Below are positions 52,464 through 58,426 of a DNA stretch of 64,000 bases, in pieces. Below the pieces are notes generated by a model, which saw only the letters and a list, made by a program, of their open reading frames with translations, was not told the DNA's origin and did no database searches. Made by a program: the position numbers and the translations under genes. Positions within the stretch are counted from its first letter, which is position 1; every line of letters starts with the position of its first letter. This DNA is from an uncultured Chlamydiae bacterium (GTDB lineage Bacteria > Chlamydiota > Chlamydiia > Chlamydiales > CACLRR01). The stretch covers positions 23,229-87,228 of the forward strand of contig CACLRR010000003.1 of assembly GCA_902609415.1 (NCBI GenBank), in the 5' to 3' direction.

Positions 52464-52473
52464 AGTTTTCTCT

Positions 52474-52491
52474 GTTAGGTTAGGCTTAATT
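52474..52491 (+). repeat. direct repeat, left copy (flanks ORF 52518-53288)
   Basis: GTTAGGTTAGGCTTAATT matches 53439-53456 at 17 of 18 positions. An additional shared tgaagtttt lies at 52461 and 53326. Confidence 0.6.
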
Positions 52492-52517
52492 CAGTCAAAC
52501 TTAATATATAGGATGTT

Positions 52518-53288
52518 ATGAAAAATACGTTTCTACTTTCTTTCTTCTTTTTATGCTCCATTTCATCTCTAGAAATGTCTTTTTTCTATGAAGAGCAATT
52601 GGAGGAACCAAAAACAGAACAAGAGTTAGATCTTGTAGAACATGCAAAAAGTAGTTTTTCAAAAGCTGTAAACCTTGAATCAAAATTAGTTGGAATAGAG
52701 TTTAAAGAACATCCTCTTTCTGCAACATGGAAGAAAGAAAATTTTGATCATATACATACTATGCAGGATATACCTTTACTTCGAATTCATCATCTTATGA
52801 ATAATTTGGCATCATACTATGAAACAACACATCTTCACGTAGGTCTCCTTGCAGGGGATTCATTTATTGCGACGCAGTATAGAAATGCAGAACAGTTAAG
52901 ATGCTGTGTAGGATTAGATTGGTTTATGGAGTGTTCAAAGGAAGTCTTTTATGCAAATGCTGATCAATATATTTTACCTGAAAGTTATTCTATCATCGAT
53001 TCTTCTTGCTACCAGTTTGATAAAACTCTTATTCCGGAACCGATTAACCTATACTTCTATGATGCTGATCATTGTCTAATTGGGCATGAAAATGCCTTTA
53101 CATACTATGATGATTGTTTTGCTGATCTTTTTATTGCTGTCATTGATGATTGGTCCTGCCCATGGATCAGAAAGCCTACTTTTAATGCCTTTAAGAAGTT
53201 AGGTTATACTGTTCTTTACCAGGCATACCTTGAACCAGGAGAGTCATCTTTTGAAAATGGACAGTATATCGCTGTAATTAGGCGATAG
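52518..53288 (+). CDS. hypothetical protein, distant class I (Methyltransf_24-like) methyltransferase fold, N-terminal hydrophobic leader
   Basis: Leader MKNTFLLSFFFLCSISS. LHVGLLAGDSF resembles SAM motif I of the LEIGvfxGxS type. NLYFYDADHCLIGHENAF resembles the fDlifIDgdHsye block. The assignment is weak. Confidence 0.5.
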   Translation: MKNTFLLSFFFLCSISSLEMSFFYEEQLEEPKTEQELDLVEHAKSSFSKAVNLESKLVGIEFKEHPLSATWKKENFDHIHTMQDIPLLRIHHLMNNLASYYETTHLHVGLLAGDSFIATQYRNAEQLRCCVGLDWFMECSKEVFYANADQYILPESYSIIDSSCYQFDKTLIPEPINLYFYDADHCLIGHENAFTYYDDCFADLFIAVIDDWSCPWIRKPTFNAFKKLGYTVLYQAYLEPGESSFENGQYIAVIRR

Positions 53289-53438
53289 TCTATTGTTACT
53301 TTCTCTTAAAGGGTAGGGTTTATTCTGAAGTTTTTTCCATTTTATAATATGTCCTATGAGAGTGGTACGGTGTCTGTTTGATAGAGAAATGAGGAGTTCC
53401 TTATAAATAATAGAGTATTTTAGAGGAATTTCTAATCA

Positions 53439-53456
53439 GTTAGGTTAGACTTAATT
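53439..53456 (+). repeat. direct repeat, right copy
   Basis: GTTAGGTTAGACTTAATT; see 52474-52491. Confidence 0.6.
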
Positions 53457-53470
53457 AATTGTCGGCTTTT

Positions 53471-54217
53471 TTAGCGTTTCTTGAGAAGAATGGCGTTGCT
53501 ATTTTCAATCTCATAGACCACATCACAGTGGTCTAGTAAATACCATAGAGCTTCCATTTTGGTGTGTTTTCCGTCTATTACACAAAAGATGTCAGAAAAG
53601 AGAATATAGCCGTTACTTTTGACCTTTGGTAAGTAAAGAATAGCATCTTCAAGAGAGGCTTCTTTCCCCATATTTCCATGAAAGTGGATGAAGTCTACCT
53701 CATTGGGTACAAGATTAATACATGTAGATGATTTCTGATGGAGAATGGTTGTGAAACCCGTATATTCATAGTTTTCTAGCATTATTCCGAATTTCGTTTT
53801 AATCATTTTTAGATCTAGATTTTTCCACCAGATGTAGTTTGGATCACTTTCGGGCACTTCATTTAGAACATCATTTGTTGACCAAGAATCAATGGCATAG
53901 ACATGACCTGAGTATTGGTGCTTCATAGTATGCATTATTGGCATAAGAGAAGCTCCAAGGAATACACCAATTTCAAGACAAATTTTAGGTTTATTAAGTT
54001 CAGAAAGAAGAAGTAGAAGCTCATTTTTTTGAGGAGAACACCAGGAATTATTGTTACGCAGGTTCAATACAGATAATTGCTCATCAAGATGATTGATTTG
54101 TTCTTCGCTAAGAGGTTCTCCATGGAGCTCTTTGATGAGGCTTAAGGAGTGTTCGCTTAACGCCCAAGTGTTGCTGACAAGTAAAATTAATGAAATAAGG
54201 AGTGTTCTTTTTTTCAT
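53471..54217 (-). CDS. class I SAM-dependent methyltransferase-like protein (Methyltransf_24-like) with signal-like leader
   Basis: Leader MKKRTLLISLILLVSNTWA. ICLEIGVFLGASL (motif I), VYAIDSW, VDFIHFHGN and NGYILFSD blocks. I preferred the start at ATG 54217 over the track start at 54280. Confidence 0.6.
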   Translation of the reverse strand: MKKRTLLISLILLVSNTWALSEHSLSLIKELHGEPLSEEQINHLDEQLSVLNLRNNNSWCSPQKNELLLLLSELNKPKICLEIGVFLGASLMPIMHTMKHQYSGHVYAIDSWSTNDVLNEVPESDPNYIWWKNLDLKMIKTKFGIMLENYEYTGFTTILHQKSSTCINLVPNEVDFIHFHGNMGKEASLEDAILYLPKVKSNGYILFSDIFCVIDGKHTKMEALWYLLDHCDVVYEIENSNAILLKKR

Positions 54218-56652: not shown

Positions 56653-56933
56653 GGGCCATTTAAGGCCTTTCACAACGCAGCAACCCCAATCTATAAAGAT
56701 GCATTCAAAGCTTTTGATTGGAGGAGAATAGAGATCCTAATTGTGTGCACTTTTTTAATTGAATATAAAAGCTTAGAGGGACTAGCAGTTGATGTACGAG
56801 CCTTTTAAAATATAGGTGATTCAATTAGTTTTATGTTTATTTGTAATTCTTAGATATTTTTATTGTATATATGTATTCGTATCCTAGATAATGTGTCTCT
56901 TTTTAATTTTTTGGTAGAATTTATGGAGGTTCG

Positions 56934-57338
56934 ATGTTTTTATCATTAAAAAAGAATTTTGAATATGATAATATTGGAATGCTAAGCTCATCCTTATGTT
57001 TTGTACATTGTATGATCACTCCATTTATATTTATTGCTCAGGCCTGTAGTAGGAGTTGTTGCTCTGGTAGTCCTTTATGGTGGAAAGCTTTTGACTTTAT
57101 TTTTCTCTTGATATCCTTTGTAGCAGTCTATTATTCAGCTAAAAACACATCAAAAAATTGGTTGCGATTTAGTTTTTATCTGTTATTTCTCATCTTGACC
57201 TTCTTGGTTGTAAATCACCATATTGGATTTTATATTATTTCAATGAAGCTAAATTATATTTCCGCTTTTCTACTTTTTGCTCTTCATTTATATAACAAAA
57301 AATTTTGCAGATGTAGTACTGGATGTTGTAAGAGTTAA
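56934..57338 (+). CDS. MerC-domain-like Cys-rich membrane protein (4 TM segments)
   Basis: GGAGG SD 5 nt upstream and TGgTAGAAT extended -10 at 56911-56919. Motifs SSLCFVHCMITPF and ACSRSCCSGSPLWWK, with C-terminal CRCSTGCCKS. As far as I recall, this pattern matches small MerC-domain proteins common in Bacteroidetes. Confidence 0.55.
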   Translation: MFLSLKKNFEYDNIGMLSSSLCFVHCMITPFIFIAQACSRSCCSGSPLWWKAFDFIFLLISFVAVYYSAKNTSKNWLRFSFYLLFLILTFLVVNHHIGFYIISMKLNYISAFLLFALHLYNKKFCRCSTGCCKS

Positions 57339-57367
57339 TAGCAATTGTGTCTTATTTTATAAACTAT

Positions 57368-57404
57368 AAACGCTCAATACGAATCTTCTGTATTCAGCGT
57401 TTTA
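57368..57404. terminator. hairpin terminator between the MerC-like gene (+) and the ankyrin gene (-)
   Basis: AAACGCTCAATAC, 9-nt loop, GTATTCAGCGTTT (13-bp stem, one mismatch), followed by a T-run on the + strand. Confidence 0.55.
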
Positions 57405-57412
57405 TATAAAAT

Positions 57413-58342
57413 TTAATTTGGATAACCACTCATTTTCTTATTTAATTTTTCGAGTAATGTTATAGCTGTTTTACCATTTTTATTAACATGATAAGGGTCT
57501 ATTCCAGGAGTTTCTAAAAGAGTCTCTACAATAATTTGACTGTTTTTGCAAATGTTATATTCTTGATTATTAATATAGCTAGTGCGAACACTTTGTATCG
57601 CAAGTATAAGAGCTGTGTTGCCATCTTCATCAGCATAGTTAATCGGCTTAGTTCCAAAACCAAAAAAGGAATTTGTATTGATCTCAGGAATCTTTAAGAG
57701 CTTTTGCATTGTGTTAAGATCGTGTTCTACGACAGCGGTCATAAGTGGTGTTCTTCCATGTTTATTGATATGATTAACATTAGCACCTGCATCTATAAGA
57801 GTTTGTATGATCATTCGTCTCTGGTACCAGCGAGAGTTAGCCTTAGCCTGCGCCTGTAGACTAAATTCTGCAGTAGCTCGAGCACACTTTATTGCCAAAA
57901 TAAGCGGTGTGTTTTTGCTTTCGTCTGCATAATTGATATCAGCGCCACCCTCTATAAGTTCTTTTACTACTCCTGAATAACCAAGACTTATGGCTTCATC
58001 AAGACTTTTATTAAGGTTTTTTTCTGCTTTTAGAAGCACCCTAACCATATTTGGACAATTACGTCTTACAGCATATATAATGGCTGTGGTCTCAATCTGC
58101 CAGTCACAGTCACCAGAAGTCCATGTATAAGGAATTGGTGTATCAATATTAGCTCCTGCTTGCATGAGTTCTTGTGTTTTTTTGGAGTCGTGTCGTTGTA
58201 CAGCTAAAATAAAATCAGCATTTAGTTGCTCAATTGATATTTTTGAGTAGTCTTCTGCTTGGAATTGTTCCTCTTGAGGATAGACTGGAATCATTTTAAT
58301 CAATAATAATAGCAGGCAAAAATATTTGTTCGTTTTTCTCAT
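57413..58342 (-). CDS. ankyrin-repeat protein with signal-like leader
   Basis: Leader MRKTNKYFCLLLLLIKMIPVYPQ. ANK repeats (KNTPLILAIKCA, HGRTPLMTAVVEHDLNTMQKLL, DGNTALILAIQS, NGKTAITLL). It starts 84 nt downstream of the tmRNA 3' end on the same strand. Confidence 0.85.
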   Translation of the reverse strand: MRKTNKYFCLLLLLIKMIPVYPQEEQFQAEDYSKISIEQLNADFILAVQRHDSKKTQELMQAGANIDTPIPYTWTSGDCDWQIETTAIIYAVRRNCPNMVRVLLKAEKNLNKSLDEAISLGYSGVVKELIEGGADINYADESKNTPLILAIKCARATAEFSLQAQAKANSRWYQRRMIIQTLIDAGANVNHINKHGRTPLMTAVVEHDLNTMQKLLKIPEINTNSFFGFGTKPINYADEDGNTALILAIQSVRTSYINNQEYNICKNSQIIVETLLETPGIDPYHVNKNGKTAITLLEKLNKKMSGYPN

Positions 58343-58426
58343 GGGATCACTTTTGTTAAAAAATAGAAGTTAATCAAGTTTCGTTGTTGTTTCCTAGTAT
58401 GATAATTTTCTACAAAAAGTAGGAAT

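Follow-up and report, generated by a model that had tools for sequence, protein, structure and literature searches.

Predicted Exported Transferases and Variable Gene Slots on a Chlamydial Backbone beside ssrA

Two kinds of described systems are among the closest to the locus examined here. Integrase-mediated islands that target transfer-messenger RNA (tmRNA) or tRNA genes were reportedly catalogued in the surveys of Williams in 2002–2003. Our locus has a similar setting: positions 52464–58426 of a 64,000-nucleotide stretch from an uncultured Chlamydiae bacterium (assembly GCA_902609415.1, contig CACLRR010000003.1; this whole stretch is the window) lie between a PIN-PhoH2 gene and the 3′ end of ssrA, the gene for tmRNA. 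The second kind comprises secreted enzymes of Chlamydia trachomatis. CPAF, CT311, CT795, Ptr, and HtrA depend on Sec and type II secretion (T2S) and reach the inclusion lumen or the cytosol, and GlgA makes glycogen in the inclusion lumen from UDP-glucose that is imported by a recruited host transporter (PMC6717882).

A sequence-only reading had interpreted the block as an old, domesticated host-manipulation locus in which ankyrin scaffolds are paired with acetyl- or methyltransferases. Our analysis suggests, with a probability that we put at roughly 0.6, that the block is a mosaic on an ancestral chlamydial backbone of the order phoH2–slot 1–D–slot 2–ssrA(−)–ileS, in which D encodes a GNAT acetyltransferase, and that it combines Sec-exported cofactor-dependent enzymes with a variable slot.

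Synteny around D and the ssrA Flank

The interval contains seven open reading frames (ORFs) of 134–309 amino acids each, labeled A to G (Table 1), instead of the eight genes counted previously. The earlier domain calls (methyltransferase-like proteins, two ankyrin proteins, two GNATs, and a MerC-like protein) were recovered by Pfam, and for A by a structure model. The claim that a tmRNA 3′ end abuts the block was confirmed as well: Rfam RF00023 finds a full-length tmRNA (153 bits) on the minus strand with its 3′ end facing the block. G lies 81 nt downstream of this end on the same strand, and ileS starts about 100 nt past the tmRNA 5′ end. ARAGORN missed the tmRNA at 58424–58824 (minus) that Rfam scores at 153 bits; ARAGORN alone is insufficient for tmRNA calls in this lineage.

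Loci for comparison, designated by L-numbers, were fetched from chlamydial or metagenomic contigs. An IleS-anchored alignment scan provided about 10 chlamydial loci among 80, and a single-protein IleS scan of GTDB genomes found no relative close enough. The nearest relatives of the window IleS among 5.8 billion protein clusters are 67–68% identical. The Simkania negevensis protein is 63% identical, and the named IleS matches are from Simkaniaceae, Rhabdochlamydiaceae, or unclassified Chlamydiota. All block proteins form singleton clusters at 90% identity. The comparisons reported below span genus-to-family distances, with the exception of contig L100.

The arrangement ssrA(−)–ileS(+) is kept in 10 other chlamydial loci, and lepB follows in the conserved order ssrA(−)–ileS(+)–lepB across chlamydial loci. 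In the IleS-anchored loci, the 10 kb around ssrA contain none of the window genes at 1–58 kb, and synteny of the block surfaced solely through loci anchored on D. In L084, a 494 kb contig, genes for a CDP-OH-P-transferase, RmuC, an SH3-like (−) and a SWIM-like (−) protein, and PIN-PhoH2 (+) are followed by two unrelated genes, a D homolog (67% identity), five to six unrelated genes, tmRNA(−), and ileS. This order mirrors that of the window genes at 39423, 40211, 48427, 50271, and 51165, then D, ssrA, and ileS. The PhoH2 protein of the window is 42% identical to the syntenic L084 copy, which is also encoded upstream of the D homolog and ssrA–ileS. L088 and L092 encode D on the same strand, with 3.6 and 8.9 kb between it and the ssrA 3′ end, and across the window and these three loci this distance ranges from 2.5 to 8.9 kb. 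Because D is syntenic in L084, L088, and L092, we conclude that the frame phoH2...D...ssrA–ileS is ancestral and that the variation lies in what occupies two slots, phoH2-to-D and D-to-ssrA.

The filling next to ssrA is indeed variable. When all ORFs in the 8 kb 3′ of ssrA were compared with one another across 12 chlamydial loci, D recurred in three loci and a DUF1415 gene in two; apart from one weak match, no other ORF recurred. Elsewhere the slot holds a toxin–antitoxin pair (AbiEii/DUF6088, L007), an unrelated ankyrin gene (L008), an RHS-repeat protein (L088), leader-bearing GNATs with a collagen-like protein and a cupin (L092), or a peptidase M15 and a nucleotide transporter (L084). In GCA_041443045.1 (contig of P0003), which is among the closest relatives, a phage-type integrase and a DUF927 primase-helicase are encoded within 10 kb upstream of ileS, a placement given relative to ileS and not to ssrA; the two genes may belong to an integrative element still intact in the corresponding ssrA flank. 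From these comparisons we conclude that in Chlamydiota the 3′ flank of ssrA has long served as a variable slot.

Two of these fillings deserve separate description. The pair in L007, a Rhabdochlamydiaceae metagenome-assembled genome (MAG), consists of an AbiEii toxin and an AbiEi-like DUF6088 protein located directly 3′ of the tmRNA (L007:7509–9259). The D-to-ssrA slot of L092 includes a MarR–GNAT fusion and a small leader-bearing GNAT unrelated to E (L092:12246–14342); GNATs have thus filled this slot more than once, in separate lineages.

The block itself shows little of what an integrase-mediated island would leave behind. A Pfam scan detected no integrase among the seven ORFs, which have other assignments or no match, and the intergenic gaps within the block (≤281 nt) leave no room for an integrase pseudogene. 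A blastn-short search with the 3′ 100 nt of ssrA returned chance 9–11-mers and no second copy in the window. Both absences had been noted by the sequence-only reading. Composition was also compared, as that reading had proposed. GC content at third codon positions (GC3) is 0.268 in the block versus 0.282 in the core (p = 0.19), synonymous codon usage and its likelihood equal those of the core (41 other window genes), and total GC is marginally lower (0.346 versus 0.366, p = 0.04). The previous reading had itself named a constant gene order joined with core-like composition as evidence against it, and the compositional half of this pair is what we find. Nor is the whole block absent with joined flanks from relatives, given that L084, L088, and L092 have D at the corresponding site; missing from that site in these distant relatives are C, E, F, G, and the A/B pair. 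Three of the four features that define an integrase-mediated tmRNA island thus fail, the fourth holds for part of the block, and the locus should not be filed as one. Nothing in the window still resembles a mobile element.

These results change the earlier interpretation in several respects. Alignment of the phoH2–ileS interval to relatives, another of the proposed checks, shows fillers that vary beside ssrA, with D fixed inside. The idea of an old domesticated island survives as far as age, compositional amelioration, and a variable ssrA flank are concerned; the block is neither one locus nor one island, for D is a positional ortholog and A/B a separate module. The description of an accessory block with no housekeeping gene also fails for D and for A/B, which belong to conserved chlamydial families. 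Taken for an "island at ssrA", the locus is unremarkable, being a variable slot in decay that lacks mobility genes. More generally, a tmRNA neighborhood together with ankyrin genes is insufficient for calling an island; here, distant synteny exposed an ancestral gene in the middle of the block.

Export Leaders on Cofactor-Dependent Enzymes

D matches Acetyltransf_1 with 61.1 bits (cutoff 20.7, E-value 1.5e-16). Its approximately 50 homologs of ∼200 amino acids are 43–74% identical and derive from chlamydial MAGs where the source is named; the nearest homolog is 74% identical, compared to 67–68% for the nearest IleS. All 26 aligned members carry a leader with a short basic n-region and a hydrophobic core that ends in ..GISYG or ..ISYA. 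The mature N-terminus is strongly kept as well (..GISYG↓EQHDFQKNG; EQHDFQKNGIxYVWExEPN; the arrow marks the predicted cleavage site), and the mature protein has a conserved N-terminal extension of ∼45 residues. Within the acetyl-CoA motif QRQGIA, Q136 and G139 are invariant in the 26 sequences. The window copy starts with GTG and has an atypical n-region.

An AlphaFold 2 model of D (predicted local distance difference test score, pLDDT, 90) shows a plain single-domain GNAT fold, and a structure search with this model returned generic GNAT matches alone and no clue to the substrate. The best PDB sequence matches include RimI, Naa30, and Naa60. Identity with RimI was rejected (TIGR01575: 45.3 bits, cutoff 86.4), and D scores far under the cutoff on all NCBIfam models. 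D thus shares the single-domain fold and the R/Q-x-x-G-x-G/A acetyl-CoA motif with RimI/Naa-type and small-molecule GNATs, but differs from the RimI/Naa type by its conserved signal peptide, its ∼45-residue mature extension, and its sub-cutoff NCBIfam scores. In the other genomes read, the genes adjoining D differ from one to the next (a peptidase M15, an unknown protein, PhyH, a second GNAT) and are never ankyrin genes. No envelope gene recurs as a partner of D in the loci read. Together, its position in four genomes and its conservation across the family indicate that D is a fixed, strongly constrained ancestral resident of this site. In L092 (10001–10568) and L093 (10001–10572), the D homologs match in two overlapping frames, which suggests frameshifted pseudogenes or assembly errors.

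The first two genes of the block form a module of their own. The sequence-only reading described both products as Methyltransf_24-like. This holds for B, which passes Pfam PF13578 (46.7 bits, cutoff 26.3, E-value 6e-12) in the 248-residue form of the deposited gene call, starting at the Met that gives MKKRTLLISLILLVSNTWA↓LSE. A has no Pfam match at E ≤ 0.1 and no PDB sequence match. Its 34 homologs (31–52% identity) come from chlamydial MAGs where the source is named, and one distant family member, P0153, carries PF13578. The family keeps the leader (22 of 22 aligned sequences), a Gly-rich HLHVGLLxGDS motif, and a YDADHS motif. Modeling of A with AlphaFold (22 homologs, pLDDT 92) and a Foldseek search, as had been suggested for this gene, revealed a class-I Rossmann methyltransferase fold. 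The PDB matches 5x7f, 5log, and 6jcl have a probability of 1.0 and template modeling (TM) scores of 0.45–0.64, with cation-dependent O-methyltransferases at the top. According to this model, A would be a class-I methyltransferase-fold protein outside current Pfam models. The comparison with cation-dependent O-methyltransferases (CCoAOMT/COMT-like, Methyltransf_3/24) is therefore twofold: B passes Methyltransf_24, and the A model superposes on these enzymes with a Foldseek probability of 1.0 and TM scores of 0.45–0.55 and keeps the Gly-rich loop and the DADH motif, whereas A lacks a Pfam match, A and B are not detectably homologous to one another, and both have export leaders in contrast to the cytoplasmic characterized enzymes. 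Paralogy of A and B was tried by BLASTP and by hhalign profile comparison and rejected, as neither detected homology.

Homologs of B (38–45% identity by tblastn, all leader-bearing) are encoded beside A homologs in L087, L098, and L099, so that A adjoins a B-type gene in all four genomes with readable context, and all four B members have a leader. The two genes are convergent in the window and in L087, and co-directional in L098 (gap 8 nt) and L099 (gap 3 nt). In L087 and L099 they occur amid genes for GT2, GT2–TPR, GT25, and an FkbM-type methyltransferase, and also a PBP4-like peptidase. A/B is thus an independent conserved two-gene module, located in slot 1 here and found elsewhere without ankyrins. 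As a further observation, nearly all proteins of the clusters that contain these glycosyltransferases, the FkbM-type methyltransferase, and A/B (L099:2202–9950 and L087:8001–15465) begin with a signal-peptide-like sequence. In L099 this sequence is canonical in seven of seven consecutive genes, including those for nucleotide-sugar-dependent glycosyltransferases; if truly exported, Leloir-type glycosyltransferases would be unusual for bacteria.

By inspection, the leaders of A, B, and D have a basic n-region, a hydrophobic core, and small residues at −3 and −1. Because these features are conserved across the homolog families, we regard the predicted export leaders of the three proteins as robust. 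A crude leader rule applied to the window flags four of seven block proteins and five of 41 core proteins (p = 0.017), although two of these five are obvious cytoplasmic enzymes. The sequence-only reading had assigned leaders to six of eight genes. Family conservation supports three of them; the N-terminus of C is anchor-like, that of G depends on the choice of start codon, F spans the membrane several times, and E lacks a leader altogether. The remark that such leaders are odd on S-adenosylmethionine (SAM)- or acetyl-CoA-dependent enzymes was justified, and applies to three proteins with conserved export-type N-termini.

Lineage-Specific Genes and Neighbors

C (Ank_2, 1.8e-44) contains a single uncharged hydrophobic stretch (residues 12–39, ∼28 residues) that resembles an anchor. 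The stop codon of C and the GTG start of D overlap by 1 nt (TAGTG), confirming that the two genes are translationally coupled. No C ortholog was found beside D in L084, L085/L090, L086, L088, L091, or L092. Since the neighbors of D in other genomes are never ankyrin genes, we regard this coupling as derived in the present lineage, which agrees with the GTG start and the atypical n-region of D here, and C as a lineage-specific insertion directly upstream of D. The supposed pairing of ankyrin scaffolds with transferases does not generalize: it is missing from all six other D loci whose flanks could be read and from all three other A/B loci.

For exported enzymes, ankyrin partners located in the periplasm have been documented, namely Bd3460 of Bdellovibrio (PMC4686830) and the immunity proteins of the type VI secretion (T6SS) Tli system (Tli preprint). 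Like these, C is an ankyrin protein with an N-terminal export or anchor segment, encoded beside and co-expressed with an enzyme that is exported or, in the case of D, predicted to be. Unlike them, its partner D is a GNAT and not a peptidoglycan hydrolase or lipase, and the pairing is limited to this genome. By this analogy, a binding or inhibitor partner of an exported enzyme would be as plausible a role for C as that of a host-targeting effector.

The second ankyrin protein, G (Ank_2, 3e-21), is deposited as a 293-residue protein that starts at an internal Met (58294) and lacks a leader; a leader exists only if translation starts at 58342. G resembles C and L011 by generic ankyrin similarity alone. 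The NCBIfam equivalogs of Dot/Icm ankyrin effectors (AnkX/Y/H and others) give at best 68 bits against a cutoff of 600, again generic repeat similarity. Inspection found no Inc-type bilobed hydrophobic domain (∼40–60 residues) in the block proteins, which have 12–20-residue cores apart from the ∼28-residue stretch of C. In the fetched chlamydial loci, no homologs of C, F, or G were detected beyond generic ankyrin similarity.

F passes Pfam MerC (68.1 bits, cutoff 27.6, E-value 1e-18). Like the MerC mercury transporter it has about four hydrophobic segments (Kyte–Doolittle) with Cys in the first, but it differs by extra Cys clusters and by the lack of mer genes around it. Among the 10 genes scanned between 49.6 and 58.3 kb, none matches MerR, MerT, MerP, or MerA. 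A true mer function was rejected for want of a mer operon context, and F probably has a different thiol or metal function.

E is a divergent GNAT (Acetyltransf_1, 33.4 bits, cutoff 20.7, E-value 6e-8) with the motif RQKGLG, a Cys/His-rich C-terminal tail, and no leader. Its true start may be Met32 at 56200. A paralogous relation between D and E was considered and rejected, as BLASTP detects no homology. Among 1.84 billion representative proteins, E has one match at 84% identity, and the rest are at most 41% identical with E-values of at least 1e-6, which makes E a near-orphan. The match at 84% identity is located on two short metagenomic contigs, L100 and L101. The segment of the window that carries E is 91.6% identical to these contigs over 687 bp, ends abruptly on both sides, and has unrelated flanks; outside of it, L100 encodes no D, F, or G. 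Over 150 codons shared with L100 there are 4 synonymous and 26 nonsynonymous differences (dS 0.045, dN 0.076, dN/dS 1.7, where dS and dN are synonymous and nonsynonymous divergence), a ratio that fits neutral or diversifying evolution but not strong purifying selection. In L100, a 1-nt deletion in a T-run puts codons 1–31 of E out of frame. E therefore looks like a recently reshuffled or transferred fast-evolving cassette with a history unlike that of D, which lies 54 nt away. Taken together, C, E, F, and G appear to be lineage-specific fillers of the two slots around D.

Beside the E homolog, L100 has genes for a zf-MYND protein and for a membrane protein that contains a RING-H2-like motif (CNHEFHTGCIDTWL..CPICR); both domains are eukaryote-like (L100:1359–2377).

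Table 1. Features of the Block and Its Anchors in Window Coordinates
Feature	Position	Strand	Basis or remark
PIN-PhoH2 gene	51165..52463	+	Pfam PIN_4 and PhoH, NCBIfam PhoH2; ancestral anchor on the left side
A, leader-bearing class-I methyltransferase-fold protein (predicted)	52518..53288	+	structure model, no Pfam match
B, leader-bearing Methyltransf_24 protein	53471..54217	−	Pfam PF13578
C, ankyrin-repeat protein	54475..55341	+	Pfam Ank_2
D, GNAT acetyltransferase with signal-peptide-like leader	55341..55958	+	Pfam Acetyltransf_1
Segment of ∼0.69 kb carrying E	56012..56698	+	sharp homology boundaries to L100/L101
E, divergent GNAT with Cys/His-rich C-terminal tail	56107..56652	+	Pfam Acetyltransf_1
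F, MerC-like Cys-rich membrane protein	56934..57338	+	Pfam MerC
G, ankyrin-repeat protein	57413..58342	−	Pfam Ank_2
ssrA (tmRNA), one-piece	58424..58824	−	Rfam RF00023; right anchor with ileS
ileS, core gene, synteny anchor	58924..62037	+	closest relatives 67–68% identical

Upstream of phoH2, the window differs from L084 by ∼6.5 kb of extra sequence between RmuC and the SH3-like gene (41511–48027, including a MutL-like gene) and by an extra HAD/NT5C-like gene (49647–50255). These extra pieces indicate indels at several backbone junctions and not in the ssrA flank alone. Two further genes upstream of phoH2 are shared by both genomes. One (48427–49596, minus) encodes a leader-bearing protein whose L084 homolog (38% identity) has a weak SH3_3 match, and the other (50271–50948, minus) a protein with a weak C-terminal SWIM zinc-finger match and a 37% identical counterpart in L084. 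A promoter and terminator scan found no more sites than in shuffled sequence.

Site of Action and Relation to Known Systems

Where could such enzymes work? We propose that A, B, and D would cross the inner membrane via Sec with the help of cleavable signal peptides, and that their most likely place of action, once released, is the inclusion lumen or the host cell. The release route could be type II secretion or vesicles, as for CPAF, and the cofactors would be host-derived. The site is inferred from two points: to our knowledge, SAM, acetyl-CoA, and nucleotide sugars are not available in the Gram-negative periplasm, and the cofactor motif of D is intact. The overlap of C and D would provide co-expression in this lineage only, and may reflect a binding or inhibitor partner.

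Several points weigh against the mosaic with exported, host-directed enzymes. Cleavage sites were assigned by eye, on the basis of the n/h/c pattern together with small residues at −1 and −3. The synteny rests on four genomes with IleS identities of at most 68%, and the age and the boundaries of the slots cannot be dated or fixed from these. L100 may come from a close relative that has undergone a rearrangement, or from an unrelated organism that received the segment by transfer. Other objections concern function, and they favor a reading in which the leader-bearing enzymes serve ordinary extracytoplasmic or membrane-tethered envelope biogenesis without any host manipulation: A/B would serve to methylate a glycan of the surface, the target of D would be a component of the periplasm or envelope, and the ankyrins would be periplasmic binding or inhibitor partners, for which there is precedent (PMC4686830, Tli preprint). 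The presence of A/B beside GT2, GT25, FkbM-type methyltransferase, and PBP4-like peptidase genes in L087 and L099 points to an envelope function, and in part bears out what the sequence-only reading had listed as counterevidence, namely that the enzymes are ordinary envelope-biogenesis enzymes. A Peptidase_M15 gene follows D in L084, and the D family is under strong purifying selection, a conservation that is atypical for a host-targeting effector and fits a housekeeping extracytoplasmic role better. Nevertheless, we consider this envelope function, the main rival, less likely than the host-directed one. The acetyl-CoA motif of D is intact and A keeps its Gly-rich and DADH motifs, the positive-inside rule puts the catalytic domains outside the cytoplasm, and D has no conserved envelope-gene partner. 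As far as we know, neither SAM and acetyl-CoA nor nucleotide sugars are at hand in a Gram-negative periplasm.

Two further explanations fare worse. That the whole phoH2–ssrA interval is one old domesticated island at the tmRNA 3′ end, serving host manipulation by ankyrin–transferase pairs, would agree with the variable ssrA flank in all chlamydial loci examined, the integrase and DUF927 primase upstream of ileS in one relative, the ankyrin gene beside ssrA in another, and the coupling of C to D. This reading is largely refuted by the synteny of D, which occupies the same place in four genomes, with phoH2 syntenic in L084. Moreover, A/B travels alone, without ankyrins, no ankyrin–transferase pair occurs at other D or A/B loci, the block lacks an integrase, an att repeat, and a compositional signal, and the history of E is separate and much more recent. 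We therefore judge a single island to be very improbable. Even less credible is the suspicion that the leaders are artifacts of AT-rich extensions or wrong starts, in which case the enzymes would be cytoplasmic and the region an unremarkable set of poorly conserved genes. It is true that the leader of G vanishes with the deposited start, that D needs a GTG start, and that the crude rule flags two cytoplasmic core enzymes. But homologs from different genomes (22 for A, 4 for B, and 26 for D) retain a leader of like character in the same position, they begin with ATG and show canonical small residues at both −1 and −3, and the mature N-terminus of D (EQHDFQKNG) is strongly conserved too.

On the mosaic reading, the exported-enzyme observation appears real and extends beyond the window, with export itself being predicted: three families of cofactor-dependent enzymes carry conserved export signals across many uncultured chlamydiae. 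If export is real, A, B, and D are candidates for lumen or host enzymes that use host-supplied SAM or acetyl-CoA; we know of no characterized lumen or host enzyme of that class in Chlamydiota. A more ambitious and decidedly speculative proposal, which we think unlikely, is that environmental chlamydiae possess a conserved set of Sec-exported cofactor-dependent transferases (the D-family GNAT, A/B, and the leader-bearing GT2/GT25 clusters of relatives) that would acetylate, methylate, and glycosylate beyond the bacterial cytoplasm, in the inclusion lumen or the host secretory pathway, with host-imported acetyl-CoA, SAM, and nucleotide sugars. If true, the GlgA/UDP-glucose paradigm would extend to a class of extracytoplasmic "borrowed-cofactor" chemistry. 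Our literature search returned no description of chlamydial tmRNA islands or of exported chlamydial GNATs or methyltransferases.

Compared to tmRNA- and tRNA-targeted islands, the locus is similar in that variable lineage-specific genes abut the ssrA 3′ end and in that one relative has an integrase and a primase in a comparable area. It differs in that an integrase, a second copy of the ssrA 3′ end, and a deviating composition are all missing from the window, and in that the ancestral gene D lies inside. With the Sec/T2S-dependent proteins and the lumenal glycogen enzymes of chlamydiae, A, B, and D would share a Sec-type signal peptide on a soluble enzyme of an obligate intracellular chlamydia, a proposed extrabacterial site, and host-supplied donors (PMC6717882). 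In contrast, the described proteins are proteases or glycogen enzymes of Chlamydiaceae, and GlgA and GlgB use type III secretion rather than Sec. The proteins described here are GNAT and methyltransferase-fold proteins of environmental chlamydiae with no homology found to those enzymes, and their secretion is predicted only. Sec-dependent secreted chlamydial enzymes are thus the known kind to which A, B, and D would belong, and the new element appears to be a conserved export signal on cofactor-dependent transferase families of environmental chlamydiae.

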